Shown here: in pieces, positions 2 through 30,270 of the stretch
Position numbering within the stretch: the stretch's first letter is position 1
Layout of the letters: each line of letters opens with the position of its first letter
Made by a program: the position numbers and the translations under genes
Source: a bacterium
Lineage (GTDB): Bacteria > UBA8248
NCBI GenBank assembly: GCA_965203325.1
Contig: OZ241875.1
Location: 608,001 to 672,000 of the forward strand
Length of the DNA: 64,000 bases
Direction of reading: 5' to 3'
Notes under the pieces: model-generated
Seen by the model: only the letters and a program-made list of their open reading frames with translations
Told to the model about the DNA's origin: nothing
Database searches by the model: none

Positions 2-559
2 ATGAATGAGGATGAGTCGACTTTATCCCTGTCAGACAAGGTGTTGGACCGGGCAAATGTTTTGCGTTTTCCAAAACCGGACGAGCTTAAGTCGAATCTA
101 CCGACGGCAGGCGAGCAGCACCAGTCACAAGGTTACCTGCCCAAGTCGCGCTGGACACAAGAGTGGATGCGTAGTGAGAAGAATATGGACACAACCGTAT
201 TGAATTTGTCGTCCAGCATTGTCGAGGACATTAATGGAATTATGGACTCCATGGGACGGCCGTTTGGTCACCGTATGGGCCAAGCAATATTACATTACGT
301 GGCGAACTATCCTTCCGATCTTAACCAGTACAACTCTCTGAAGGCTGTTAATATGGCAATGTGCGATCAAATAGAACTGAGAATTCTCCCGAGGTTGCGT
401 GGCGTCCTAGTAGAGGAGAATCGCACCCATCTAATTCAACTCATCGATGTTGTAAAGACATTGGAGGATGACTCGCTAGCGAAAGCGATCGATCATGCTA
501 TACAGCGCTCGCGCGACACTAACGGCCTGTTTGTCTGGCGTGGGCACACCAGAGAATAA
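2..559 (+). CDS. McrB-family AAA+ GTPase, C-terminal part (5' truncated by window edge)
   Basis: Begins MNEDESTLSLSDKVLDRAN: the NxxD signature plus the arginine-finger segment of McrB-like GTPases. Directly upstream of a DUF2357-like gene. Confidence 0.8.
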   Translation: MNEDESTLSLSDKVLDRANVLRFPKPDELKSNLPTAGEQHQSQGYLPKSRWTQEWMRSEKNMDTTVLNLSSSIVEDINGIMDSMGRPFGHRMGQAILHYVANYPSDLNQYNSLKAVNMAMCDQIELRILPRLRGVLVEENRTHLIQLIDVVKTLEDDSLAKAIDHAIQRSRDTNGLFVWRGHTRE

Positions 560-570
560 AATTCCGAGTT

Positions 571-2178
571 ATGGCGACTCCAGACCTGATCTTTTTGCGA
601 TTGCCTTGGGGCCTCATCGGGGGCCCCGGGACACGGCGGAACATTCCTGCTCCCGCGGTCGTACAGGAAAGCGGCCGCGTCGCCCCCCTACTGTGTAGTC
701 GTGACGAACGGACCATTCTGCTCAACGGTGATGAGTTCCAGGGCGAATTATTCGTCGAAACCCAGACGCGTTTTGGCGAAAAACAGCGAGTCTGGGAAAT
801 TCCAATCCCGCTGCACGATTACGAGTCCCAGACCCTGCGTTTCCACTCTTGGGACCGCGACGCTCCGATCGAGTGGCAGCACCGTGTCAGTTGTCCGTCA
901 AACAGCCCTTCGGTCTCTGAGGACGATGAAGACCAGATGGGAGTTGGAAGCCTCATTGTCCATTTTTTGCAGACCATTGTCGCACGGATGCAGGATTTCG
1001 AGATTGCCTTAACAACCGGGCAGGATTCGTGGGATCATGTTCTCGAACTCTGGCTCGATCCAGAAGTGCCGCGTGAGCCTACAATGGATATCCTGGTGCG
1101 ACACGCGCGTGAATACCAGGCCACCTGGACCGATATCGCTGAGCATCCAAGACGATTGCTGAATCGTAGCCGCGAGCTCGTGGCTATTTCACGTGTGCAA
1201 GAAATTGATGTGCAGTGCATGCAATGGTTGTCACGCCAACCTGGTGAAACATTGGCGCAACGAGCGGGGGATCGGCAGCGTATTCTAGCGCTGGCTCGCC
1301 ATGAAAACCGAAATACTCTCGAGAATCGCATTTTCCTTGATCTCATGGTTCGGAGTGCAGCCGCAGCGCGGGACTACCTCGCTATGAACAAAGGTCGTTC
1401 GGTCACGTCGAGGACTCAATCGATTGAACGATACAAACGGGAGTGCCTCAATCTCATTATTGAGCTTAACGCTCAGGGCGTGTGGCGCCAGATTGAGCCG
1501 GTCCAACCCAATTATGTCCTGTTATACGATGAACGCTATCGTCATGTCTGGACTGCGCGGCAAGAAATCATCCAACGTGAACGGGCTGCGGACAATCTTT
1601 GGCGCTGGCAGCATCGGTCTTGGGCGGAGTTCTGCAAATCGGTGGTCGCCGTTTCCATGCTTTGGATTTCCGGTGCCGAGCGCTGCTTTGCCACGCCGTT
1701 GTTCGTGGCAAACGAGCATCAGCGCGGACAATGGCTAATCCATGATGATCCGATGATCGTCATCGCCCATTGGCAAAAGGGGTGGGTTGTGGAGCTGTTA
1801 TCAGGCAATTCGGATGATGTGTCCACTAAAAAACGCAAACTTTGCGCATCATTTTGGCTACGCTACACCAATTTGCGCGGCGGGGATTACACTTATATTG
1901 CAGTCTGGGCCGTTCATGGGTTGGACGGAGCGTTGGATCTACGCGAACTTGTTGACTCCGCTAACGAGGCGTTGGAAATGCTCCGTGACCGCAGCCACCT
2001 CGCCGGCGGAATCGTATTGGCTTCGAATGTCAACCCAAATTCCGTGAGTAGAACTGAACAGGCGCAGTTTGTATCGGGTTGCATGTTCGGTCCATATGAC
2101 AAACAACTAACCGACGCACTCGAGCATTTGGGCTATTACATTCAGAACTGGATCGAGGCTTCGTCGTGCGACCATTGA
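571..2178 (+). CDS. DUF2357 / McrC-like protein
   Basis: Motifs HPRRLL, NTLENR and PNYVLLYDERYRHVW are typical of DUF2357 McrC partners. Starts 11 bp after the McrB-like gene. Confidence 0.75.
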   Translation: MATPDLIFLRLPWGLIGGPGTRRNIPAPAVVQESGRVAPLLCSRDERTILLNGDEFQGELFVETQTRFGEKQRVWEIPIPLHDYESQTLRFHSWDRDAPIEWQHRVSCPSNSPSVSEDDEDQMGVGSLIVHFLQTIVARMQDFEIALTTGQDSWDHVLELWLDPEVPREPTMDILVRHAREYQATWTDIAEHPRRLLNRSRELVAISRVQEIDVQCMQWLSRQPGETLAQRAGDRQRILALARHENRNTLENRIFLDLMVRSAAAARDYLAMNKGRSVTSRTQSIERYKRECLNLIIELNAQGVWRQIEPVQPNYVLLYDERYRHVWTARQEIIQRERAADNLWRWQHRSWAEFCKSVVAVSMLWISGAERCFATPLFVANEHQRGQWLIHDDPMIVIAHWQKGWVVELLSGNSDDVSTKKRKLCASFWLRYTNLRGGDYTYIAVWAVHGLDGALDLRELVDSANEALEMLRDRSHLAGGIVLASNVNPNSVSRTEQAQFVSGCMFGPYDKQLTDALEHLGYYIQNWIEASSCDH

Positions 2179-4721
2179 TTGGCGTTGATTTGAACGGGGT
2201 TTGCGACTGGCTGGCGAGACTCAAGGCTGACGATGAGCAGGAGTACATCAATCTCGGTGTTCGCGGTGGTATAATCCGCCTCCAGGCGCAGGATGATCTG
2301 TGGTTGGCCGGGATGCAGAATGAATTCGCGCCTCATGGTCGCGGCTTAGGCTGGGGGAAACTGGGTTCCAGCGACAATCGGGTCGAGATGCTGAAGATGC
2401 TGGAGATAATTAACTCCTCGGAACCCGACGACCGAATCAGAAACGCAGTAACCTCCTCTTTACCTAGCCTCTTTGGTGACAGCGATCTCACGGTTTTTGC
2501 AGTTCCGGACATTCCAGCTTATGGAGAGGACTTCCGCGACCGACTACTCCGTCTACTGAATCTTGTCACCGGGCTGCGGCCTTTGCTGCTTTGGCGGCCA
2601 GTAGCGGCTCTTTTGGGCCACATTGCCAAAGCTCCTCAGGTTTTTCGCCCCGGTCTTGATATCGCGGTCTTATCGCTCATGGCGGATGGAATTCACCTGT
2701 CTTCTCTATCCCTGGAAAACCACGAAGGCAGTCCACTGCTAGTTCCGGTGCGAAACAAGTCCGGTCGACAAGCCTGCGGCTCCTTTCGCGGCGAGAGCTT
2801 GGTGGAGGATGCTCGAAGTCGCCTTGTTCGCTTATCTTCTTTGTCTGCCGAGGAAATTGAGGCATCTGCAATGGCACCTTGGCGCTTTGCAATAGGCGCG
2901 GAACAACAGCAAGAACTTATCCGGTTGACCGACGACCGCGGTTGGTTGAAGCTTCCGGATCTCGATTATAGTTCTCCATTCCCGGAAAAGATGGACTTGC
3001 CAGATAATTTCTTGGATAGCCTCCGTACGGTGCAAGCCCTACTGATCGAGGGACCATTTGCTGGTAACGAGGCATGGCGCGAGAACGTAGTAGCAGCATT
3101 GAAGGCGCATGTGAATCTGCCGACCTATATCGATACGTTGGACAGAACCACCGTTGCTCTAGGATGTTTGGAAGCGGCGAAACGGCATCGTATTGGTCAG
3201 CCGATATACTATGACTTTCTTCCCCAGCTTGAAATTAACGCGATGGTAGGAAACACCCCACAATTCGTCGACTTGATCGAACCTGGCGCTCGATGCCAAG
3301 GCGGGGAGCCCTTCTTTGCCGATGCGCCTGGGGAGTATGTCATAGACACGGGTGCGACGCGTCTCACCTTCTGGCTCTTCAAGGAAGATTTTGGGCCTGA
3401 GCGCCCCCGTAAGGCCGAAATAGAACTGCCAGTAGAAGCCGAGCAGCGATATGAACTTTCCGTTTCGGTCAAACAGACGCCGGGCCAAGGATTCGCAGAA
3501 GTGCAAATTTCGTCGTCTGAATTCGAGGCTCTCCGAAGATCCCCCATTACACTCGATTGGGCGAGTATGGAAGAGATCAATTTATCTCGTGAAGAAATCA
3601 TGAAGGAATTGGAAGATCAATCCCAAATTGGTCGTCGCTGGCCAGACATCGACGTCAAGCCCGGTCACCCTATTTTGTGGCTGGATGTACATCCTAAGGG
3701 AAACCTCATAGAACAGTTGGCGGCATATCGTACGAGTCCCTTGATGCGAAACTTCGAGATCGATCCGTGTGCAACATTACGCCTAAAAACTTTACGGGAA
3801 CGGTTCAGCAAGCCCGACACTCCCTCTTTTCTTGGCTCTAGGATAGGGTTAGACGTACAAGAACGCGGCAGTTTTCGCGCTCTCGATAGTAACGGGGAGT
3901 TACCTAAACCGACGAGTAACCTTCAGGTCCCGGAGCATACAGGCAAGGAATTGGATAAGACACTGCACAAATGTGAGAAAGATCTAGCCGTTCTCCAACA
4001 TAGTTTTGGTGAAAGGATAAAAAAGACGATTTTGGGTGATATTCTCGGTTTTGCCAGTTGGTGCTTCTGGCGTTGTCCGTCTAATATTGCCGAGGTATTT
4101 CTGGGCACATACGAAGGTAAGTTCTCATATGATATTAACCCCATCCTGCTTCGTGAAGGAGTGGCGCGCGTGGTTTGCAAGCCTAACGAACTGAAGCGCT
4201 ATTTTAAGGCTCTGGAAATACGGCTCACGAAAATAGGGCGCATCACAGCGGCAGAATACGCGGGCCTCGCCCGTGTGCTTGGAACCTCAGAAGAAGCAGC
4301 GGTCATCCTCGGTCCGGCGCTTGCAGACCGCATTGGAAATCTGACAGTCACAGATATTGCGGATGAAAACAACAAAGACATCAAAACGGCTTATAAAAAA
4401 CGATTCAAAGCGGCGCTGTTGATGCTGGCTGCACTACTGCGACACCGAAAAAAGCGCGAGGACTTTCTATATCCAGCAACCAAAGTCGCCCGACAGCTTC
4501 TCGAGAAACTGGACAGTGCGAAGGATCGCAACCGCCAATTCGCCGAAAAAAACAAACGATTGGCTTCTCGTGTCCAAGGAGATCTCAGGAGGAGGCGACT
4601 CGCTGCGGCGAAACGCATGGACAATAATGCCAAGATCATTTCCGAACTCAAGGAGTACATCCACCTCAAAGGTCAAGACCCGAATATTATCCGGCGCATC
4701 GATATGCTTGATGAAGAATGA
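2166..4721 (+). CDS. Degenerate Hsp70/actin-fold protein with C-terminal helical domain
   Basis: IGVDLNG, FAVPD...LLLWRPVAALL, IAVLSL, LLIEGP and TVALGC occur in the same order as the Hsp70 NBD motifs. Overlaps the upstream gene. Confidence 0.65.
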   Translation: MRPLIGVDLNGVCDWLARLKADDEQEYINLGVRGGIIRLQAQDDLWLAGMQNEFAPHGRGLGWGKLGSSDNRVEMLKMLEIINSSEPDDRIRNAVTSSLPSLFGDSDLTVFAVPDIPAYGEDFRDRLLRLLNLVTGLRPLLLWRPVAALLGHIAKAPQVFRPGLDIAVLSLMADGIHLSSLSLENHEGSPLLVPVRNKSGRQACGSFRGESLVEDARSRLVRLSSLSAEEIEASAMAPWRFAIGAEQQQELIRLTDDRGWLKLPDLDYSSPFPEKMDLPDNFLDSLRTVQALLIEGPFAGNEAWRENVVAALKAHVNLPTYIDTLDRTTVALGCLEAAKRHRIGQPIYYDFLPQLEINAMVGNTPQFVDLIEPGARCQGGEPFFADAPGEYVIDTGATRLTFWLFKEDFGPERPRKAEIELPVEAEQRYELSVSVKQTPGQGFAEVQISSSEFEALRRSPITLDWASMEEINLSREEIMKELEDQSQIGRRWPDIDVKPGHPILWLDVHPKGNLIEQLAAYRTSPLMRNFEIDPCATLRLKTLRERFSKPDTPSFLGSRIGLDVQERGSFRALDSNGELPKPTSNLQVPEHTGKELDKTLHKCEKDLAVLQHSFGERIKKTILGDILGFASWCFWRCPSNIAEVFLGTYEGKFSYDINPILLREGVARVVCKPNELKRYFKALEIRLTKIGRITAAEYAGLARVLGTSEEAAVILGPALADRIGNLTVTDIADENNKDIKTAYKKRFKAALLMLAALLRHRKKREDFLYPATKVARQLLEKLDSAKDRNRQFAEKNKRLASRVQGDLRRRRLAAAKRMDNNAKIISELKEYIHLKGQDPNIIRRIDMLDEE

Positions 4722-4940: not shown

Positions 4941-5283
4941 TTATTTCTCTGAAGACATTGCCCGTGCGATCAAGGCCCCGACCTTCTCCGCCGCCTCGAC
5001 GAGATGCCCGTCGGCGAGGTGCGCATAGCCCGCGGTGGTGCGGTGCCGCCGATGCCCGAGCAGCGCGCCGACCAGAGGCAAGTTCTCGCCCGACATAACA
5101 GCATGGCTGGCCATGGTGTGACGAAGGTCGTGGAGCCGCAACCTGCCGAGGTCCGCATCCTCGCACAACGCCCTTCAGCAGTTGCGAAAGGATAGTATCC
5201 CCGTCCATTGGCGTAGTCTGGAAATAGAAACCTGTCCGGAGAGCGCTCACCAGGCATGGCATCGATGATCGCCCTGGCGCCCC
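4941..5283 (-). pseudogene. Tyrosine integrase C-terminal remnant
   Basis: HDLRH...LLGH...TTAGYAHL catalytic motifs. The upstream part (FLFP) is in another frame and the N-terminus is missing. Confidence 0.85.
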
Positions 5284-5620
5284 GGTCGCGCGGCGCGGGT
5301 TTGCGAGAGAGGTTTCGGGGTGGCTACGCCGAGGGATACCGGCTTCTTGGGCGAAGAGGGTGGCGAGGAGTGTGTGAACGAGTCCTGCAAGGACGAAGGC
5401 CCTAGTGCTGCAGGGTGGATTGGGATTCGTCAAGGGTGCACTTCAGGGGTTGTGGGTTCCGCCCGGTCCTTTCCGCCAGGCTCCCGCACCCACGCCGTCT
5501 CCCTCCTCGTCCTCTGCAAGGTGCTTACCCGGCGTGCGATGAGGCGGCACAATCCTGTCTCATCGTCCTCTTTGCGCATACGCGCGATCACATATGGTTC
5601 AATTCAGTAAGGAACGCGGA

Positions 5621-5883
5621 ATGAGGTAATTGGATATTGCGGCCCACGTCGCAGATCGGGGCTCGCTGTCGAAAGACTAGCAGTGAATGCGCTTTTCGAG
5701 GCCATCCAGGGTGCTCTAGTGAACGGGGAGATGGTCTCCATACCGGAATACGGAACGTTCTCGACGAGGAACTGGCTGGCGCGGAGTGGACAAAACCCCC
5801 GCACGGAGAAGAACATCGACATGGCCGCCGCAAAGATGCCGTTCTTCAAGGCCAGCAAGGCCCTGCGGAACGCGGTGTGCTAG
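5621..5883 (+). pseudogene. HU/IHF-family DNA-binding protein, disrupted
   Basis: C-terminal GTF...GQNPRT...PFFKASKALR. The N-terminus reads ATG AGG TAA then LDIAAHVADRGSLSK, with a premature stop and a frameshift. Confidence 0.75.
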
Positions 5884-6210: not shown

Positions 6211-8193
6211 ATGAAGATTGAGCGCTTGCGGATTAAGAATTTTCGGTGTTTTGGGGGCAACCACAAGAACATCCCTTTTGAGCATGGCGTCACCGCGTTC
6301 GTTGGCGGTAATGGCTCCGGCAAGACAGCAACCTTTCTTGCTCTTTCTCGCCTGTTTGGCGTCAGTTCGTCACAACGTGCCGTGCACCGGAGGGATTTTC
6401 ATATTCCCAAAGAGAGCCACCAATTGGAATCGGGAGCCTCGCTGACAATAGAGGCAATCTTCGGTTTCCCGGAACTGGAGGGTCTAGAAGAGGAGGAGTA
6501 CGAGCATGCGGTCCCCGAATTCTTCCTTCAGATGGCCGCTTCGGGCCCTGGCGAGCCGTTGAAGGTTCGCATGCAACTCCAAGCAACTTGGACTGATGAC
6601 AGTACACCGGATGGAAACATTGAAGAGGACTTGCGCTGGATAACGACGCTTGACGAAGTATTTGACTGGGATGAATGCGCAAGGGTCCAGGCGGTTCAGC
6701 GGGGTTCAATTCAACTGATCTACGTTCCCGCAGTTCGCGACGCTGCTAGTCAGGTTACGAATCTCTTAAAAGGACGCCTTTGGAAGGCAGCTCGCTGGTC
6801 GGAAGGGTTTCGAGATCGGAGCGCGCGAAGCGCGGAGAAGCTCCAACGGCGCTTTGAAGAGGAAGAACCAGCAGAGTTCTTAATCGAACGTTTGTCAGAT
6901 CGATGGCTGCAACTCAGCGAAGCAGACACCGACACCACGCCAGCCCTAAAGCTCGTTGACAGCCGTTTTGAGGAGTTGGTGCGAAAGGCCGAGTTCGTAT
7001 TTTCACCCGACGAAGAGGGGCGTGAACGTGAATTGGCTGATCTGAGTGATGGGCAACGATCTCTGTTTCATATCGCTCTCACCGCCGCCACGCTTGAGGT
7101 TGAGAAAGATGCATTTGCACAGTCGGCGGATGAGAGTTTTTTTGAGCATGAAAAGCTCCGCAGAACGCATTTGACGCTTTTCGCTATTGAGGAACCAGAG
7201 AACAGTCTGTCCCCGTTTTTTCTCTCGCGTATCGTATCGCAGGCGCGTGAGATCGGTGCCTTGCCAATGGCTCAGGTGATGATATCGAGCCATTCATCAG
7301 CAATCCTGAGTCGCATTGAACCTGAGGAGGTGCGGTATTTTCGACTTAATCGTCGGAGTCGGAGGGCTGTGGTCCGGAAGCTTTCGTTACCAAGAGATGA
7401 TCAGGAGGCGAGCCAATATGTGCGGCTCGCCGTGAAAGCATATCCGGAACTCTATTTCGCGCGATTCGTGGTTTTGGGCGAAGGGGATTCAGAGCGGCTT
7501 GTAATTCCGAGAATTGCAGGCGCCATGGGCCTGGCGCTCGACCCGTCCTTTGTCCCGGTCGTTCCCCTTGGAGGTCGTTTTATTGGCCACTTCTGGAAGC
7601 TGCTTTCAGATTTACGTATCCCGCATGCTACGTTGCTTGATTTGGATCTCGGTAGAAAACATGGCGGGGCAAGTGCAATAAAAAAAGCCGTCACCGCGCT
7701 CGAAGAGTATGGGGTCGACTTTTCCGAGAAACCTTGTGTTGAGAATGGAATGGTAGACCCTGAAGCAATTGATGACCTGGATGACGCAGAACTGCTTGAT
7801 GAGGAACACCACTGGTTCGACGCCCTTGCCAAAGAGAATGTCTTTTTCTCCCATCCGATCGATCTCGACTTTGCGATGCTATCCGCATTCCAGGAGGCGT
7901 ACCAAACGCCACATCCGGGCGGGCGGGGACCGCGAATGAGTAAGAATGCGATCGAAGAAAAAAAGAGAACCACGCTGAAGACCGGCGGTACCCCCGATTT
8001 ATATGATGAGGACTATAACGGCGCATTTTCCTGGTATCCTTACCTGTTCCTGAACCGCAGCAAACCTGAAACGCACATTGCGGCACTTTCCTGTATTGAC
8101 GAGCAGATTCTTGCGAAAGACGCACCCAACGAGATCAAAGCGCTGATCGATGCCATCTGCGAAGCGCTGGGGCTGCCGGAAGACGAAATATGA
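6211..8193 (+). CDS. gajA: Gabija GajA: OLD-family ABC ATPase-TOPRIM nuclease
   Basis: Walker A GGNGSGKT, LSDGQ signature, IEEPE Walker B, TOPRIM GEGDSE and DLD. Overlaps the UvrD gene by ATGA. Confidence 0.85.
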   Translation: MKIERLRIKNFRCFGGNHKNIPFEHGVTAFVGGNGSGKTATFLALSRLFGVSSSQRAVHRRDFHIPKESHQLESGASLTIEAIFGFPELEGLEEEEYEHAVPEFFLQMAASGPGEPLKVRMQLQATWTDDSTPDGNIEEDLRWITTLDEVFDWDECARVQAVQRGSIQLIYVPAVRDAASQVTNLLKGRLWKAARWSEGFRDRSARSAEKLQRRFEEEEPAEFLIERLSDRWLQLSEADTDTTPALKLVDSRFEELVRKAEFVFSPDEEGRERELADLSDGQRSLFHIALTAATLEVEKDAFAQSADESFFEHEKLRRTHLTLFAIEEPENSLSPFFLSRIVSQAREIGALPMAQVMISSHSSAILSRIEPEEVRYFRLNRRSRRAVVRKLSLPRDDQEASQYVRLAVKAYPELYFARFVVLGEGDSERLVIPRIAGAMGLALDPSFVPVVPLGGRFIGHFWKLLSDLRIPHATLLDLDLGRKHGGASAIKKAVTALEEYGVDFSEKPCVENGMVDPEAIDDLDDAELLDEEHHWFDALAKENVFFSHPIDLDFAMLSAFQEAYQTPHPGGRGPRMSKNAIEEKKRTTLKTGGTPDLYDEDYNGAFSWYPYLFLNRSKPETHIAALSCIDEQILAKDAPNEIKALIDAICEALGLPEDEI

Positions 8194-10043
8194 GCCTGAC
8201 CAGCCCGGAGGAATGGCAACCGCAAGGCGTCGATGATCTCGAACCCCGGGCTTGGGAAGCACTTAGGGAAACCGAGCAGAGCATCCTCGTTACAGCAGGC
8301 GCCGGTGCGGGCAAAACAGAATTTCTCGCGCAGAAAGCGGCTTACCTTCTGCAAACCGGGCTCTGCCCTGCTCCGAAGCGCATCTTGGCGATCAGCTTTA
8401 AGCGAGATGCTGCGCGTAATTTGACGCTTCGCGTTGAGAGGCGCTGTACGCCTGAACAGGCGCGCCGCTTCAATTCCTTCACATTCGATGCTTTCGCAAA
8501 GAACCTCGTTGATCGTTTCAGGGCAGCGATATCCGGCGAATTTCAGCCTCCCGCTGACTATCGCATCGTCATGCCGAGGAATCCGGATTTCCGTTATTTT
8601 CTTGAAAATAGGAATATTCGTGCCATTGGAGAACAGCAGCTTGAGCGGCTGGTTGCGCGAACACCTTTGCCGTTTAACGGTGATGGCCTAGCCGTTCAGA
8701 CCCTTCACGCGTATTGGCACGCGCAATTCGAGGACCACGAGGATGTCCTACTTTCCTTTGCCATGATAAACCGTCTAGCGCTTCGAATGCTGGAGGAAAA
8801 CCCATCAGTTCGGCGCGCCCTGCATCTTAGCTATCCGGTTATTTTCCTAGACGAATTCCAGGACACGACTTTCCCCCAATATGAATTGCTGCAGGCAGCT
8901 TTTAACGACGGTCATCCAATATTCACAGCGGTCGGAGACGACAAGCAACGCATCATGGTTTGGGCCGGCGCAATGCCTGAAGCATTTGATACATTTGCTG
9001 ACGATTATCACGCGCGCCGTATACCACTAATTTGCAATTGGCGTTCCCATGAGGATCTCGTTCGCATGCAACAAGTGATTGCCACACGGATCGATCCAAC
9101 AGTAGAGCATCCCGAGGCTCAGGCTGAGCGTTCAGTCGACGGCGAAATTGCGGCCATTTGGCAGTTCGCGACGGAGGAAGAGGAAGCCGAAATCCTCGCG
9201 GCGTGGATCGCGCAGGAAGTTGCCGTTGGTACGGTCGAACCGCACGACACGGCCATTCTGGTCCGCATGCATGCTAACAATGTAGAAAACAAGCTCTCCG
9301 ACGCTTTTGCCCGCTACGGGATTCGCCTGCGAAATGTCGCACGCGATGTCGGCGGGATTTCCATCCAGGATGTGCTTAGCGAGGAGCTCACGCAGATTCT
9401 TCTGCCACTTCTGCGCCTTGGAAGCACCATCCGCAGTCCGGACAATTGGGATTCTTCGCTTCGGAACCTTCAATTCCTCGAAGCCGTCGACACAGAGAAT
9501 GATGCGGCCTTGCTAAGACTGGAGCAGCGACTGGAAACGTTCGTGCGGGAGATGCGCCTTTCGATGCGCAGCGACAATCCCGATGAAGACTCCATTGAGG
9601 CTGCCGCATGCGCTGCTCTCGCGTTTGTGCAAGAGGAAAAAGTTCGACAAGCCTTTCCCGAATATCACCGTCAGCGTGATTTTGACCGCGCGTGGAGCGG
9701 GTTTGTAACGCTCCTGAAAGAATGCGCTGCGATAGGCGACACCTGGACCACCATCCTCGACGAATTCGAGGGAACCGACCAAGTCGTGCTGATGACCATC
9801 CATAGGAGCAAGGGCCTGGAATTTCATACGATGATCTTCTACGGGCTAGATGATCGAACTTGGCGGAGCCTAGCATCGCAGCGCCTTGAAGAACTGAACT
9901 CGTTCTTTGTTGCATTCACCAGAGCACGTCAACGTGCTTTCTTCACCTTATGTGATGAACGAGGGCGACCAGTTGCTTGGCTCGAAAGGCTCCTGCTTCC
10001 TGCTGGTGTCAACCGCGTGGAGGGTAAAATATTGATTGCGTGA
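8190..10043 (+). CDS. gajB: Gabija GajB: UvrD-like helicase
   Basis: AGAGAGKT, LDEFQD, VGDDKQRI, NWRS, MTIHRSKGLEF, VAFTRAR. Confidence 0.85.
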   Translation: MSLTSPEEWQPQGVDDLEPRAWEALRETEQSILVTAGAGAGKTEFLAQKAAYLLQTGLCPAPKRILAISFKRDAARNLTLRVERRCTPEQARRFNSFTFDAFAKNLVDRFRAAISGEFQPPADYRIVMPRNPDFRYFLENRNIRAIGEQQLERLVARTPLPFNGDGLAVQTLHAYWHAQFEDHEDVLLSFAMINRLALRMLEENPSVRRALHLSYPVIFLDEFQDTTFPQYELLQAAFNDGHPIFTAVGDDKQRIMVWAGAMPEAFDTFADDYHARRIPLICNWRSHEDLVRMQQVIATRIDPTVEHPEAQAERSVDGEIAAIWQFATEEEEAEILAAWIAQEVAVGTVEPHDTAILVRMHANNVENKLSDAFARYGIRLRNVARDVGGISIQDVLSEELTQILLPLLRLGSTIRSPDNWDSSLRNLQFLEAVDTENDAALLRLEQRLETFVREMRLSMRSDNPDEDSIEAAACAALAFVQEEKVRQAFPEYHRQRDFDRAWSGFVTLLKECAAIGDTWTTILDEFEGTDQVVLMTIHRSKGLEFHTMIFYGLDDRTWRSLASQRLEELNSFFVAFTRARQRAFFTLCDERGRPVAWLERLLLPAGVNRVEGKILIA

Positions 10044-11801: not shown

Positions 11802-13214
11802 GGGTTAAGTCCTAAACTTGCTGGAAAATTAAGAGGGGTGCCTCCTCGGCGGAGGAACCATGAACCCGTGCCGGTGAGCGCCGGCATCCCACCGAGGAGG
11901 CAACCCCATGAAGAAGAGAATACAGGCATCGATGCATACCCGCCAATCCCTGTCCGACCTGCTCGAAGGCCGTCTGTCGAGTCCTGATGCGCGAGCCGAC
12001 CTGGTGAAGCTCGCCACGCGGCTCATCGTGGAAGAGGCGCTGGAGGCGGAGAGCCGCGACGCCTTGGGCCGGGAATACTACGAACACGGCGCGAAGCCCG
12101 GCCAGGGCTACCGCAACGGTCACCGCCCGGGTCGCCTGAAGACGGCCGAAGGGTTCATCGAGTACGCGGCGCCGCAGATTGCCGGGCGCGAGGAAGGGTT
12201 CCGCTCCGAGATCCGCGAGGGCCTCAAGGGGCGCACCGAGGCGCTCGAGGGGCTGGCGGTGGAGCTTCTGGCGCGCGGCCTGTCGGTGCGCGACATCGAA
12301 GACGTCTTCACCGACGAGAGCGGTCGTCTTCTGCTCTCGCGCACGGCGGTCTCCGAACTCGGTGAGCGTCTCTGGGAAGACTACCAGGAGTTCGCGTCAA
12401 GGGACCTGGGCGAGCACGAGGTCGTCTATCTGTTCATCGACGGGATTGCGGAACGTATCCGCCCGGGGAGCAGGCGCGAGCCGGTTCTGGCCGCCTGGGG
12501 ATTCACGGCGAACGGCGCGAAGGTTCTCCTGCACCTGATGGCGGGTTCAAAAGAAGACGCCGAGACGGTGAGCGCGTTCTTCCACGACATGCGCGCCCGC
12601 GGCCTGGGCGACCCTTTGCTGGTGGTCAGCGACGGAGCGCCCGGCATCATCAAGGCGATCGAGACGTGCTTCCCGCGCTCGGAGCGGCAACGCTGCCTGG
12701 CGCACCGGATGAGGAACCTCGCGGCCAAGGCGCCCGAGGACCTCTGGCCGGAGTTCAAGGCGCGGGCGACGGCGGCCTACCAGGCCCCCTCGCGCGCCAT
12801 CGCCCGGGAACTGGCCGAAGGGATAGTCAGGGACTACGAGTCCGAACTGCCCGGCGCCGTGGCGTGTATCGCGACGACTTCGAAGCCTGCATCGCGCACC
12901 TGCGGGCGCCCGTCAACCACCGCCGGGCCGTGCGCACCACGAACCTCTTGGAGCGCTTGCTCGTCGAGGAACGCAGGCGGATGAAGATCATCCCCAACGC
13001 CTTCGGGGAAAAGCCGGTGCTCAAGCTCATGTTCGCCGCCATGATCCGGGCTTCGGAGCGATGGCGGGCGCTCAGGGTCACCGGCTTCGAACGCCGACAG
13101 ATGGACGCCCTGAGAAGGGAACTGGACCAGGACTACGAGGCGGAAAACGACATCAGGCAGCCCTCGGCCGATATGCGCCCAAAGAAATTATCCAGCATCT
13201 ACAGGACTTGACCC
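11802..13214 (+). mobile_element. IS256-family insertion sequence
   Basis: 29-bp imperfect terminal inverted repeats (GGGTTAAGTCCTAAACTTGCTGGAAAATT vs GGGTCAAGTCCTGTAGATGCTGGATAATT, 23/29) around a mutator-type transposase. Confidence 0.9.
11908..13211 (+). pseudogene. IS256 transposase with a frameshift near 12867
   Basis: YRNG, YLFIDG, VSDGAPG and QRCLAH are in one frame; RTTNLLER and the C-terminus are in another. Confidence 0.85.
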
Positions 13215-16183: not shown

Positions 16184-18229
16184 GTGGCTGTGTTGAACCA
16201 CGGACGTTCGATATTTCGCCGCTCGCAGAGTCTTCCCAGATACCTGGAATATGGCATACCTGCGCTGATCCTGTTGCTGGGGCTTGCCCTTCGGGCCTGG
16301 GATCCGGCGCCGATTGCGGACATGCGGCTGAGAACTTTTGACTATTATCAACACATCAAACCGCGCGAATACGTTCCGCTTCCGGTCCATATCATTGATC
16401 TCGACGATGAAAGTATTTCACGTTACGGCCAATGGCCGTGGCCGCGGAATTTGCTTGCCCGGCTCCTCGAAAAGTTGACGGAGGCTCGTGCGGCGGCGGT
16501 TGTCTTCGATGTCATATTCTCGGAACCTGACCGCACATCGCCTCTTGAAATTATCAAACATTTACCGGGACAATTGGTCGATGAGAACCTGCGGGAGAAA
16601 GCGGCGCGCTCTAAAAATCACGACGAGATGTTTGCGGCCGCAATCAGAAAAGCGGGTAATGTCGCGCTGGGTTTCGTATTAACCCCGAATGGTCCAGGCG
16701 CTCAGCCGCCAATTCGCACGGGATACGCATTTACCGGTGACGACCCGCGCCTTTTCGTTCCCCGCTTCGAGGGTTCCGTTCTCAATTTGAGCCGCCTTTC
16801 CACTTCTGCAGCCGGTGGCGGAAGCCTGAACCTTGTACCCGAGCGTGACGGCGTGGCCCGCCGTGTTCCGCTATTGGTAAATTTCGTCGACAAAATCTAT
16901 CCGACACTATCACTCGACACGCTGCGAATGGTCCAAGGCGCCTCGACACTGCTGGTGAAAAGCTCCGGCGCAAGCAGTGAGAAAGCGTTCGGACAAAAGA
17001 CCGGCGTCATCAACGTCAAGGTCGGCCGGCTCACGGTGCCGACGGATGCGGTAGGGAGAATCTGGCTCTACCAGACCCGTGAGCAGGATGTCCGGTTCGT
17101 GCCGGCCTGGAAGGTACTCGTCGGCGATTTCAACCAAACCCGGCTCAAGGGTTCGATTCTATTCGTCGGCACGAGCGCCGCAGGACTCGCCGATCTCAAG
17201 ACGACACCGCTCCATCCGTCTCTTCCCGGCGTTGCGATCCACGCCCAAGTCACCGAACAAATGCTTCTCGGCTCCTACCTTACCCGCCCAGACTGGGCGA
17301 CGGGCGCAGAGTTGATCTTTCTATTCATCGCCGGCTCCATTCTCGTATTCCTTATCCCGCGGCTTGGAGCGGCATGGTCGGCGCTGATTGGCGGTGTGTG
17401 TGCCGTATTCGGCGTCGCCCTCTCATGGTATGCCTTCAGTGCGGCCTCCATAAGGCTTTTAATCGATCCGATCTATCCCGTCTTCATTGTAGGAATCGTT
17501 TTTGTCTGCGGTTCGATTTTGAGCTATTTGCGCACCGAATTGGATCGTCGCCAACTCCACAGCATGTTCGGCATGTATGTTTCGCGCAAGCTTGTCGACC
17601 ACCTCGTCACACACCCGAACGAGGTGAAACTGGGCGGAGAGATGCGGCCCTTGACGGTGATGTTCATGGATGTGCGCGGCTTCACCGCTCTGTCCGAGAA
17701 CATGTCGGCTGGCGAACTCACCACGTTCATGAACCGGTTTCTGACGACGATGACCGCGGCCGTACTCGAACAAGACGGGACGATCAGCCACTACACGGGT
17801 GACGGACTAATGGCCTTTTGGAATTCGCCGGTCGATCAGCCCGATCACGTCCGCCGCGCCTGCTTGGCGGCGCTGGATATGAGAATGCGTCTCGATAATC
17901 TCAATGCGGACCTCGAAAGCGAAGCCCTGGCCCGGAAAGCCTCGCACAATCCCATACGGATCGGGATCGGATTAAACACCGGCGTATGTTGCGTCGGCAA
18001 CATCGGTTCTGAGCAGCGCTTCGGCTATTCGGCCCTGGGCGACGCCGTGAACATCGCAGCCCGCCTGGAGACGGAATCAAAGACCTACGGAGTGCCGATC
18101 ATCATCGGCGAATCGACTCGCGCGGCCGTCTCCGAGTTCGACTGTGAGGAGATCGGCAATATCAAAATTCGTGGTCGGGAAGCTCCGTTGACGATATTCT
18201 CTTTATTGGGCGAGCAACACGCAGAATGA
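16184..18229 (+). CDS. CHASE2-domain class III adenylate/guanylate cyclase
   Basis: GQWPWPR and DVIFSEPDR (CHASE2), three TM helices, then FMDVRGFT, GDGLMAFW and GDAVNIAARLE. Confidence 0.92.
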   Translation: MAVLNHGRSIFRRSQSLPRYLEYGIPALILLLGLALRAWDPAPIADMRLRTFDYYQHIKPREYVPLPVHIIDLDDESISRYGQWPWPRNLLARLLEKLTEARAAAVVFDVIFSEPDRTSPLEIIKHLPGQLVDENLREKAARSKNHDEMFAAAIRKAGNVALGFVLTPNGPGAQPPIRTGYAFTGDDPRLFVPRFEGSVLNLSRLSTSAAGGGSLNLVPERDGVARRVPLLVNFVDKIYPTLSLDTLRMVQGASTLLVKSSGASSEKAFGQKTGVINVKVGRLTVPTDAVGRIWLYQTREQDVRFVPAWKVLVGDFNQTRLKGSILFVGTSAAGLADLKTTPLHPSLPGVAIHAQVTEQMLLGSYLTRPDWATGAELIFLFIAGSILVFLIPRLGAAWSALIGGVCAVFGVALSWYAFSAASIRLLIDPIYPVFIVGIVFVCGSILSYLRTELDRRQLHSMFGMYVSRKLVDHLVTHPNEVKLGGEMRPLTVMFMDVRGFTALSENMSAGELTTFMNRFLTTMTAAVLEQDGTISHYTGDGLMAFWNSPVDQPDHVRRACLAALDMRMRLDNLNADLESEALARKASHNPIRIGIGLNTGVCCVGNIGSEQRFGYSALGDAVNIAARLETESKTYGVPIIIGESTRAAVSEFDCEEIGNIKIRGREAPLTIFSLLGEQHAE

Positions 18230-28157: not shown

Positions 28158-30125
28158 TCATTTTATAGCAGATGTTTCATGAGCAATTGATAATAACGGC
28201 ACACGGTTTTCCTCATTTAGAATCTCGCAACAAAGCCGTTCCAGACTATGTGATCGAAATTGTTGATCCCAAGCAAAAGCCAAGCTTGCGCCGATATGCA
28301 ACGTATTCTTTTTTAATCCTCCGGCAAGGCCATATTGATGATTAGCTTTGATCTGACACGATTTCCAATCATCTTCCCCTATATCCGCCTCGATGATCGC
28401 TCCGATATTAGAGTGCCAAATTGTGAATCCTTTACCCCAAATTGGAGCCGCAGGCATCGGGTTTTCGGACTCTGCACCCAGCAAGTTTAAAAGAGCCTGA
28501 TTGTCTTTTTCATGTTTGATTCGGCTGCCGTTCCTGTCTTGCTGGTCAGCATCGGCATCGAAGACTACATAAGTTGGAATACCCATATGTTTGGCGATGA
28601 CAAGAGGCTGGAGCAATTCGCTCTTCCCATTTACCGGAACGATATGGCAACCCATGCGCCTGTAATCTTCCAATCGCCCCAGTAAACTAAAATATGCCAA
28701 TAAGTAGGCTACATCTTCCAGCCCTTCAACTAAAACGAGGTGCTGTGTGAAAAACATTTCGTTCAAACTAGGCTGCAAGACCTGATGAATTTTTGCGAGC
28801 GCCCCCTCGGGTTTAACATGATGGTTACCCGTGGCTTCACCGACAGCCTTAGCAATTTCCCCGAAAGACATGTGCCAAACAGACGAAGAAGGACTGCCAG
28901 AGTCTTTACGGACCATACGCACATCCTCAAATCCTTCGCCAGAAACAAACAATGGGTTATGCGTAGAAACAAGGACTTGGGAGTTATCGCGGCTGAGGTT
29001 ATCAAGCACATCTGCAAGATGACGAGCTTGAGGTGGATGCTGATAGAGTTCAGGTTCCTCGCAAGCAAGTATTAAAGTAGGAGCACCAGAGGTGTTAGTT
29101 CCTGCGAGTTCTTGCAAAAGAGCAAGTAAATATGAGCGCTGCAAACCATGTCCGAAACGAGCCAACTCGCCTTCAAAGTTGCCTTCACCTGCAAGAATGT
29201 GAGCCAAAGGCTCCTCCACTTGTACTGATTTTTCGGGATCTTGCTTCCATTGTAGACGCAATCGCGCGTCTGGATGCGCCCATTCAGTTAGTCGTTCTTG
29301 AAGGCTAGTTGAGATTTCGTTGAGCACATCTTGGTTTTGATCAAGTATGTCCTGGTATTGCTCTTGCACCTCAGTTCGCAAAGCATTTACCGTTTCGTCG
29401 AAGTTCGTTTTGGACCGAACAGTGCGCGCTAAAAGCTTACCCAGAGCAGAGTTGCGCGCCTCGCTCTGCTCGCTCGTGACGTCTTTTACAGCTGGCACAT
29501 AAACCCACTGCACATGTTTGTCGAGTCGGTTGACCCCTCTAGAGAAACCATAAAATTGATCTTCACTTGGGATGAGTTCACATTGATTCGGGTGCTCACT
29601 TTCATAATCATGTAAAGCTTGCTCCATGTTGTTCTTGGTTCCAGGTGGAGGCAAATCCGCAAATTCGTTCCGGAGGCTAGTATAAATTTCTTTCAGTTCC
29701 GCTACTTTCTTCCCATCGCTTGAGGCCTTAAAAAATGGAGCAAAGTCTAATATCCCCGAGCGCTGACCATATTGTTTGACCTCCGCATTACCAGTATCGG
29801 CGTTAAATTCGGCAACAGCGGAAACAACGAGTTTGTCTTGACGGAAATAATTTGAGAAATCCTTCTGCGCTTCCTCGCTCAATTCGGTAAAAGTGATCGT
29901 GATACAAATAGGATCAGCGGTGTTTTTGCAATTAAAATCCTCCTCAGCCAATTGGCTAAGATTAGTCGGAGTATTTTTTGATTCTCGGAAGAATACATTA
30001 AGAGCAGTCAATACCGTGGATTTACCAGCACCATTGGGACCGACTAAGCAGGTATAATCATTGAAAGGAATGGTTTCATCTTTAAATGAGCGAAAATTCT
30101 CGATACGAACAGATTCTATTTTCAT
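28158..30125 (-). CDS. Stand-alone OLD-family ATPase-TOPRIM nuclease
   Basis: GPNGAGKS, GHGLQR, EEPELYQHP, STH, LVEGLED, FDAD. AT-rich relative to its flanks. Confidence 0.88.
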   Translation of the reverse strand: MKIESVRIENFRSFKDETIPFNDYTCLVGPNGAGKSTVLTALNVFFRESKNTPTNLSQLAEEDFNCKNTADPICITITFTELSEEAQKDFSNYFRQDKLVVSAVAEFNADTGNAEVKQYGQRSGILDFAPFFKASSDGKKVAELKEIYTSLRNEFADLPPPGTKNNMEQALHDYESEHPNQCELIPSEDQFYGFSRGVNRLDKHVQWVYVPAVKDVTSEQSEARNSALGKLLARTVRSKTNFDETVNALRTEVQEQYQDILDQNQDVLNEISTSLQERLTEWAHPDARLRLQWKQDPEKSVQVEEPLAHILAGEGNFEGELARFGHGLQRSYLLALLQELAGTNTSGAPTLILACEEPELYQHPPQARHLADVLDNLSRDNSQVLVSTHNPLFVSGEGFEDVRMVRKDSGSPSSSVWHMSFGEIAKAVGEATGNHHVKPEGALAKIHQVLQPSLNEMFFTQHLVLVEGLEDVAYLLAYFSLLGRLEDYRRMGCHIVPVNGKSELLQPLVIAKHMGIPTYVVFDADADQQDRNGSRIKHEKDNQALLNLLGAESENPMPAAPIWGKGFTIWHSNIGAIIEADIGEDDWKSCQIKANHQYGLAGGLKKNTLHIGASLAFAWDQQFRSHSLERLCCEILNEENRVPLLSIAHETSAIK

Positions 30126-30270
30126 GACCCATGTCTCCATCTATACAAAGTACAACTAATCCATTCCCTCCCCGCAAAAGCGCCCCAAGCTAGGGGAAGG
30201 CGCATGGGGTGTCAATATGAGGGGCGATAGTTTGAGCCGACGCGAGAGCATGGTGGAACGTATTTCTAGT

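Follow-up and report, generated by a model that had tools for sequence, protein, structure and literature searches.

Within McrBC-type immunity, coiled-coil nuclease tandems (CoCoNuTs) form a large branch that was defined by computation, and direct evidence has so far come from one Type II-like locus only. The form closest to the locus studied here, the Type III-B CoCoNuT, was described by computation (Bell, Sahakyan, Makarova, Wolf, and Koonin, eLife 2024, PMC11090510). As the text of that paper presents it, CnuH is a UPF1-like helicase to which a Vsr-like nuclease is fused directly, with no separate CnuE; CnuA is a separate coiled-coil protein without any other domain; and CnuB joins a coiled coil to an McrB GTPase whose NxD signature is shortened and in most cases has an E or D after it. 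CnuC comprises an immunoglobulin (Ig)-like sandwich, DUF2357, and an inactivated PD-(D/E)xK domain, and CnuD is encoded by a separate gene and has Hsp70-like nucleotide-binding and substrate-binding domains (NBD and SBD), a degenerate Walker A-like motif, HEAT-like repeats, and a coiled coil (PMC11090510).

Here, we analyze the genes at the start of a 64,000-nucleotide stretch of bacterial DNA (hereafter the window, G000:C1:608001-672000), which the initial annotation had described as an operon for an McrB-like GTPase, a DUF2357 protein, and a degenerate Hsp70-fold protein. A further 12 kb upstream were taken as a second stretch, L002, in which a window coordinate equals the L002 coordinate minus 12000. 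The three window genes very probably belong to a Type III-B CoCoNuT cassette that is complete with five genes, cnuH-cnuA-cnuB-cnuC-cnuD, at G000:C1:601252-612721, and represent cnuB (its 3' end), cnuC, and cnuD.

A complete five-gene cassette

The cassette genes are as follows (aa, amino acids).

L002 5252-8542, plus strand: cnuH, encoding a 1096-aa protein
Ending at L002 10409, plus strand: cnuA, encoding a coiled-coil protein of ~600-680 aa, start uncertain
G000:C1:606424-608559 (L002 10424-12559), plus strand: full cnuB, 711 aa, beginning 1,577 bases before the window
Window 2..559, plus strand: 3' end of cnuB, its last 185 codons, open at the 5' end of the window
Window 571..2178, plus strand: cnuC, 535 aa
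Window 2166..4721, plus strand: cnuD, 851 aa

The list of open reading frames (ORFs) places exactly three plus-strand ORFs in window 2-4721, at the coordinates first annotated. They had been called tightly coupled, and indeed cnuB and cnuC are separated by an 11-nt spacer and cnuC and cnuD overlap by 13 nt. Three more plus-strand genes lie upstream, the third of which is cnuB itself, running on into the window; the window edge thus cuts the cassette inside cnuB. All five reading frames are intact and full length compared with their homologues.

The locus agrees with the Type III-B CoCoNuT, as far as the text of the describing paper goes, in the NxD signature of CnuB, the CnuH-Vsr fusion without CnuE, the separate CnuA, the domain set of CnuC, and the separate CnuD. 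The proposal of a CoCoNuT-type McrBC variant with an Hsp70-like component is supported, both gene order and domains fitting Type III-B. The same agreement lowers the novelty of the locus, as the initial annotation had anticipated for a match to a described subtype: it adds no new kind of system and is a further copy of the computationally described Type III-B. Types I-B and I-C, considered first, were rejected, as the text of PMC11090510 describes them without CnuH and CnuD and with CSD/YTH domains.

Conserved linkage in related genomes

We scanned one genome per species for CnuD and obtained 69 loci, which belong to Binatia, Poribacteria, many Alphaproteobacteria, some Gammaproteobacteria, and one Planctomycetales metagenome-assembled genome (MAG). 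Binatia MAGs hold the loci most closely homologous to the present one. A tblastn search with the five cassette proteins found CnuD again in every locus but L061 (68 of 69) at E-values up to 1e-5. Fifty-two loci extend 9 kb or more upstream of cnuD, and in 51 of them CnuH, CnuB, and CnuC occur in order and on the same strand; in the remaining one (L065), CnuH was undetected by tblastn. On shorter contigs, the genes present are those that the length of the flank allows. The gap between CnuH and CnuB spans 1.1-3.6 kb in all 56 loci measured and contains a poorly conserved long ORF, as expected of a coiled-coil CnuA. Collectively, these data answer the question of conserved linkage raised at the outset: the three genes stay together, and do so with CnuH.

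Clustering of 940 flanking ORFs yielded no flanking family present in more than 5 loci. Across the 69 related loci, no counterpart was found for the 132-aa ORF that overlaps the cnuH start, two minus-strand ORFs and a DUF429 protein upstream, the HU and integrase fragments downstream, or GajA, and the three matches to GajB were all unrelated helicases. Given the absence of a recurrent flanking family, we consider the cassette to consist of five genes.

The CnuD family is of modest size: one search returned 71 clusters (90% identity), and 368 representatives were counted at 50% identity with E-values up to 0.001. None of the 71 clusters carries a Pfam domain, and the source names read only "hypothetical protein". 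In a Loktanella MAG contig, CnuC and CnuD read as one 1292-aa ORF (L058 3190-7068), and L065 likewise holds a single ORF. These apparent fusions were set aside, because both come from MAG contigs, where a one-base error at the overlapping stop and start would yield the same picture.

Motor, helicase-nuclease, and predicted membrane anchors

Full-length CnuB matches Pfam AAA_5 (E-value 8.1e-05) and the PADLOC candidate PDC-M26A (E-value 7.4e-41), whereas the 185-aa ORF within the window matched no Pfam family. The call of an McrB-like GTPase thus holds for the full 711-aa gene and could not have been drawn from Pfam with the window ORF alone. The first codons of the window encode the GTPase signature, M-N-E-D-E, that is, the NxD signature N528-E529-D530-E531. 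We aligned 61 homologues drawn from the related loci and found Walker A (G383..K389), Walker B (D464-E465), and N528-x-D530-E531 each kept in all 61. Residues 45-300 contain 1.6% Pro+Gly and 69% E/K/R/Q/L/A, a composition consistent with a coiled coil, and they match the coiled-coil arms of the JetC/LmuB profiles.

The 1096-aa CnuH is a single ORF that combines superfamily 1 (SF1) helicase domains (AAA_11, E-value 9.1e-18; AAA_12, 3.6e-26) with a C-terminal, Vsr-like MTES_1575/DUF559 nuclease (E-values 4.6e-14 and 3.2e-06). Walker A (G403..K409) and Walker B (D702-E703) are kept in 53 of 53 sequences, and the nuclease residues D1022, E1039, D1041, G1042, and H1046, which form a D...ExDG...H motif, in 52 of 53. 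Because these motifs are so widely kept, both activities of CnuH, including the sole nuclease of the cassette, look active. A Pfam scan of the cassette ORFs revealed no HEPN or PLD gene.

CnuA returned just sub-threshold coiled-coil-type Pfam matches, together with matches to the arms of JetC, LmuB, and DruC. An SF1 helicase and a coiled-coil McrB N-terminus had been predicted upstream of the window; the helicase is there, as the AAA_11/AAA_12 domains of CnuH, and the coiled coil is consistent with composition and profile-arm matches. The CnuA coding sequence also contains a 156-bp tandem repeat (3.3 copies, 95% matches, L002 9666-10183 = G000:C1:605666-606183) that is in frame, at 52 residues per copy, and looks like a recent lengthening of the coiled coil. 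At the start of cnuA (L002 8364-8613), the longest ORF overlaps the end of cnuH by 179 nt, and the hydrophobic anchor begins 62 nt past the cnuH stop; in-frame TTG codons at L002 8511 and 8562 are alternative starts.

An anchor was called where a 19-residue N-terminal stretch had a mean Kyte-Doolittle hydropathy of at least 1.6, and 53 loci were assessed (the 52 with long flanks and the present one). Such a stretch is present in all 53 CnuB homologues, starting at residues 4-28, and in 51 of 53 CnuA ORFs, starting 2-134 nt past the cnuH stop. The two CnuA exceptions are L005, with a truncated 218-aa ORF, and L036, which scored 1.59. Single-pass membrane anchors are accordingly predicted on both CnuA and CnuB. 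Neither the text nor the four supplementary files of PMC11090510, figures aside, mention membrane anchoring of Type III-B.

CnuC, an McrC homologue without the catalytic lysine

The three parts of CnuC are listed below.

CnuC ~1-105 (window 571-885), plus strand: predicted Ig-like beta-sandwich, from the model and weak Ig-domain matches
CnuC ~117-364 (window 919-1662), plus strand: predicted DUF2357 helical region, from Pfam and the model
CnuC ~365-535 (window 1663-2175), plus strand: predicted inactivated PD-(D/E)xK-like alpha/beta domain, from the model and the alignment

The only Pfam match of CnuC is DUF2357, the N-terminal domain of McrC (E-value 2.2e-05; 24.2 bits against a cut-off of 23.3). 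A structure model built from a 34-sequence alignment (pLDDT 88.1, predicted template modeling score [pTM] 0.86) displays N-terminal strands at residues 6-102 and a C-terminal alpha/beta domain. Foldseek ranked McrC chains best, 6ut7_G (E-value 6.2e-05) and 6hz4_M (9.3e-05), which were the only two matches at E-values of 0.001 or lower. Matches of the N-terminal sandwich to Ig domains were weak (E-values 0.07-0.25), and its predicted Ig-like nature draws on these hits only.

The initial annotation had seen no obvious intact PD-(D/E)xK motif in this protein, and the alignment bears this out. At the place of the motif, CnuC reads H391-D392-D393-P394 ... E408-L409-L410, so that E408-L-L replaces (D/E)xK. 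Conservation extends to E408 and P394, whereas D392 is present in 85% of sequences, and in none of the 34 aligned sequences does a Lys stand two residues past E408. On the evidence of model and alignment, CnuC has the McrC fold but not the catalytic lysine.

CnuD, an Hsp70 fold without Hsp70 sequence

CnuD is divided as follows, all on the plus strand.

CnuD 1-350 (window 2166-3215), plus strand: nucleotide-binding domain
CnuD ~351-470 (window 3216-3575), plus strand: SBD-beta-like sandwich
CnuD 471-590, plus strand: mixed linker
CnuD 591-851 (window 3936-4718), plus strand: all-helical C-terminal region ending in a basic tail

CnuD has no match in Pfam, NCBIfam, or PADLOC, and a profile search of PDB sequences returned no match at E-values up to 1. 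An hhalign comparison with the DnaK of the same genome gave a probability of 0.5%, and a genome-wide PF00012 scan found DnaK and three others, with nothing at the position of cnuD. The relationship is thus visible in the fold alone. The structure model displays an actin-like/Hsp70 fold with an NBD plus SBD-beta and keeps the Hsp70 inter-domain layout, and structural searches were filled with Hsp70 matches that cover residues 1-470. Structure prediction of the 851-aa protein, which had been put forward as a check for an actin-like fold, therefore came out in favor of one of Hsp70 type.

The NBD motifs noticed earlier, with VDLNG and SLMADG at the phosphate loops, line up with the genome's own DnaK. 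Aligned by eye, IGVDLNGVCD of CnuD corresponds to IGIDLGTTNS of DnaK. AVLSLMADG corresponds to AVYDFGGGT, SLMADG standing for DFGGGT, and W143-R144-P-V-A-A-L-L corresponds to NEPTAAAL, an invariant Arg replacing the catalytic Glu; the last two pairings also occur in the non-significant hhalign alignment. Because the phosphate-2 loop is replaced and the catalytic Glu has become an invariant Arg, canonical ATP hydrolysis by CnuD is unlikely. D8, N10, G11, D14, R144, R196, and G200 are invariant in 45 sequences, which points to strong constraint on the residues of the cleft.

The beta-rich segment followed by a long basic helical tail, also described in the initial annotation, reappears in the model, with the beta-rich segment at residues ~349-449, twelve helices at residues 592-846, and the last 111 residues helical and carrying a net charge of +15. 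An Atlas search with the tail (residues 585-851) gave no usable match. Some distant relatives of CnuD are 200-550 residues longer at the C-terminus, namely P0114 (1405 aa), P0173 (1059 aa), and P0181 (1053 aa). CnuD was found to contain neither a nuclease nor any other effector domain, which favors a role as a sensor or adaptor over one as an effector.

Predicted contact between CnuC and CnuD

A complex model of CnuC with residues 1-465 of CnuD, each supplied with its own alignment, scored 0.80 (0.80, 0.80, and 0.81 in separate runs), whereas the highest-scoring of three controls had 0.01. This mark was attained by 116 of 157 solved complexes but only by 2 of 215 mismatched pairs. At least 91% of contacts recur between runs, and the pLDDT of each partner is at least 84. 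On the CnuC side, the predicted interface comprises residues 147-153, 370-378, 390-394, and 397-437, that is, the dead nuclease domain including the vestigial H-D-D-P. On the CnuD side, it comprises residues 26-57, 66, 101, and 248-262, among them the family-specific, nearly invariant loop with G49, Q51, and A55-P56-H57. We know of no solved McrC-Hsp70 complex, and it is therefore unlikely that the high score stems from likeness to a solved structure. As a prediction, the model supports binding of CnuC to CnuD.

Given this interface, we tentatively postulate, while holding it somewhat doubtful as a whole, that the dead nuclease domain of CnuC serves as the dock for CnuD, with the G49/Q51/A55-P56-H57 loop lying on strands 370-378 and on the H-D-D-P at 390-394; that the Hsp70 cleft has been repurposed and not decayed; and that the machine is tethered to the inner membrane by the single-pass anchors on CnuA and CnuB. 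If true, the Type III-B machine would stand guard at the membrane, sense either nucleic acid on its way in or a signal close to the membrane, and then release the CnuH helicase-nuclease.

Genomic neighborhood

The features around the cassette are listed below.

L002 39-380, minus strand: Gp49-like ORF (HigB-type toxin family), upstream of the cassette
L002 1696-2958, plus strand: DUF429 protein, 420 aa, upstream of the cassette
Window 4941-5168, minus strand: integrase fragment, 75 aa, matching the phage integrase profile over its last 50 positions only
Window 5683-5883, plus strand: HU-like ORF, lacking the first 24 profile positions
Window 6211-10043, plus strand: Gabija GajA (660 aa) and GajB (617 aa), PADLOC E-values 2.9e-238 and 5.2e-208, with overlapping stop and start
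Window 11908-12984, plus strand: Mutator-family transposase (Transposase_mut, E-value 3.4e-50)
Window 16184-18229, plus strand: CHASE2 sensor fused to an adenylate/guanylate cyclase domain
Window 28158-30140, minus strand: second OLD-family ATPase (AAA_15, E-value 1.3e-49, and OLD-like TOPRIM)

The Gabija pair, which is complete, lies 1.5 kb downstream of cnuD with the integrase fragment in between, inside a jump in GC content (0.65 at window 5001-5500 versus ~0.5 around it). The integrase and HU remnants probably represent a scar left at a mobile-element boundary that separates the two defense systems. The two minus-strand ORFs (264 and 370 aa) between the Gp49-like/DUF429 ORFs and cnuH had no Pfam match. 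The ORF list places no helicase adjacent to the second OLD-family ATPase, which may be a solitary OLD or a PARIS-like or other defense gene. Beside the CHASE2-cyclase gene, a 915-aa FecR-like protein and a TPR protein are encoded on the opposite strand.

Proposed function and alternatives

Since Gabija, the integrase fragment, and the Mutator-family transposase adjoin the cassette, anti-phage defense is its most likely function. The text of a preprint that adds Druantia I/II as "Type IV CoCoNuTs" places such islands usually on integrase-bearing mobile elements (PMC12458937), with which the integrase fragment, transposase, and Gabija found here fit. In addition, a Type II CoCoNuT-like locus with seven genes, from Pseudomonas aeruginosa, is reported to protect against two RNA phages and one DNA phage (bioRxiv 10.64898/2026.04.06.716636).

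In the mechanism that we propose, CnuB would assemble into an AAA+ ring powered by GTP, which would be anchored in the inner membrane and lengthened by the coiled coil of CnuB alongside CnuA. CnuC would plug into this ring as McrC does, without cutting, and its dead nuclease domain would hold CnuD. The latter could be a non-hydrolyzing or slow Hsp70 look-alike that binds a target or signal; the published proposal for its target, in the text of the Type III-B description, is RNA or a ribosome-associated substrate (PMC11090510). The CnuH helicase, with its fused Vsr-like nuclease as the sole predicted cutting activity, would carry out restriction or abortive infection.

Several points weigh against this interpretation. 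Our literature searches turned up no experiment on a Type III CoCoNuT, so a defense role is drawn from context and from a different subtype. Ten NCBI-sourced homologues that we looked up carry none of the paper's III-B accessions (TBW38397-38400, PDS29263, ATX65552, and RLB93046), and membership is therefore judged by shared features, as opposed to a match with one of the paper's examples. In neither protein does the predicted interface exceed the remaining residues in conservation (CnuC, mean 0.529 versus 0.476 overall, permutation p 0.13; CnuD, 0.571 versus 0.549, permutation p 0.32). The calibration of the complex score is only approximate with user-supplied alignments. Vsr-family nucleases are DNA enzymes, and as the sole nuclease here is Vsr-like, the published RNA-targeting idea is not favored by it.

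The strongest alternative is that the same cassette restricts DNA and not RNA. The membrane-tethered CnuB/CnuC motor and CnuH would load on incoming, possibly modified, phage DNA, the Vsr-like domain would nick or cut it, and CnuD would merely regulate or stabilize the complex. In its favor, canonical McrBC both translocates and cuts DNA, the one nuclease motif conserved in the cassette is Vsr/DUF559-like, and membrane anchoring would put the complex where phage DNA enters. However, UPF1-like helicases and Hsp70-like domains have been argued, in the text of PMC11090510, to fit RNA binding, and the Type II relative is reported to have protected against RNA phages (bioRxiv 10.64898/2026.04.06.716636). 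We regard DNA restriction as a real possibility, though less likely than not.

A housekeeping or stress system, in which McrBC and Hsp70 parts would serve membrane-associated RNA or protein quality control, could explain why CnuD retains the Hsp70 inter-domain layout, and Bell et al. propose, in the text of their paper, a non-defense, stress-related role for a Pseudo-Type I-B CoCoNuT relative (PMC11090510). The loci are scattered, from Binatia and Poribacteria to Alpha- and Gammaproteobacteria and a Planctomycetales MAG, their flanks are unrelated, and Gabija, an integrase fragment, and a transposase adjoin the cassette here; this is the pattern of a mobile defense cassette and makes a housekeeping role improbable. 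That the cassette is a decaying, non-functional defense-island remnant, as the truncated 75-aa integrase and N-terminally short HU-like ORF just downstream and the missing canonical catalytic residues of CnuC and CnuD might suggest, is more improbable still, since the five frames are full length compared with homologues, the motor and nuclease motifs are intact, and the "lost" residues are lost family-wide while other positions are invariant, which argues for selection and not decay.

Comparison with known systems

Type III-B is a compact form of CoCoNuT in which each predicted activity resides in a separate intact protein, which makes it a convenient system in which to study the role of an Hsp70 look-alike in the restriction of nucleic acids. 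The present copy offers a complete and intact five-gene example, high-confidence models, a predicted CnuC-CnuD interface, and predicted membrane anchoring. It differs from the published Type III-B in the hydrophobic anchors, which the paper's text leaves unmentioned, and in the 156-bp x 3.3 repeat of CnuA. The match of CnuB to component A of PADLOC PDC-M26 indicates that a relative of CnuB is already among defense candidates; CnuC and CnuD match no PADLOC model at E-values up to 0.01.

Types III-A and III-C, as the text of PMC11090510 describes them, share with this locus an NxD CnuB with a coiled coil, a CnuH helicase, and an Hsp70-like module. In Type III-A, this module is fused to CnuC as CnuCD, CnuC has no nuclease fold, and a separate CnuE carries a double HEPN; Type III-C has a separate CnuD and a separate CnuE with two PLD domains. 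The present locus has no HEPN or PLD protein and instead has a Vsr-like nuclease fused to the helicase.

Compared with Hsp70/DnaK (PF00012), CnuD has no profile match, reads W-R-P-V-A-A for NEPTAA and S-L-M-A-D-G for DFGGGT, and carries a 260-residue helical region with a basic tail in place of the helical lid. With canonical McrBC of E. coli and Thermococcus gammatolerans (PDB 6hz4, 6ut6, and 6ut7), the cassette shares an AAA+ GTPase with Walker A and B and an adjacent partner of the McrC fold. The canonical signature is NxxD, whereas it is NxD here (61 of 61); the DNA-reading N-terminal domain gives way to a predicted coiled coil and membrane anchor; the D...(D/E)xK site, active in McrC, appears inactivated here (no Lys in 34 of 34); and three extra proteins accompany the pair.

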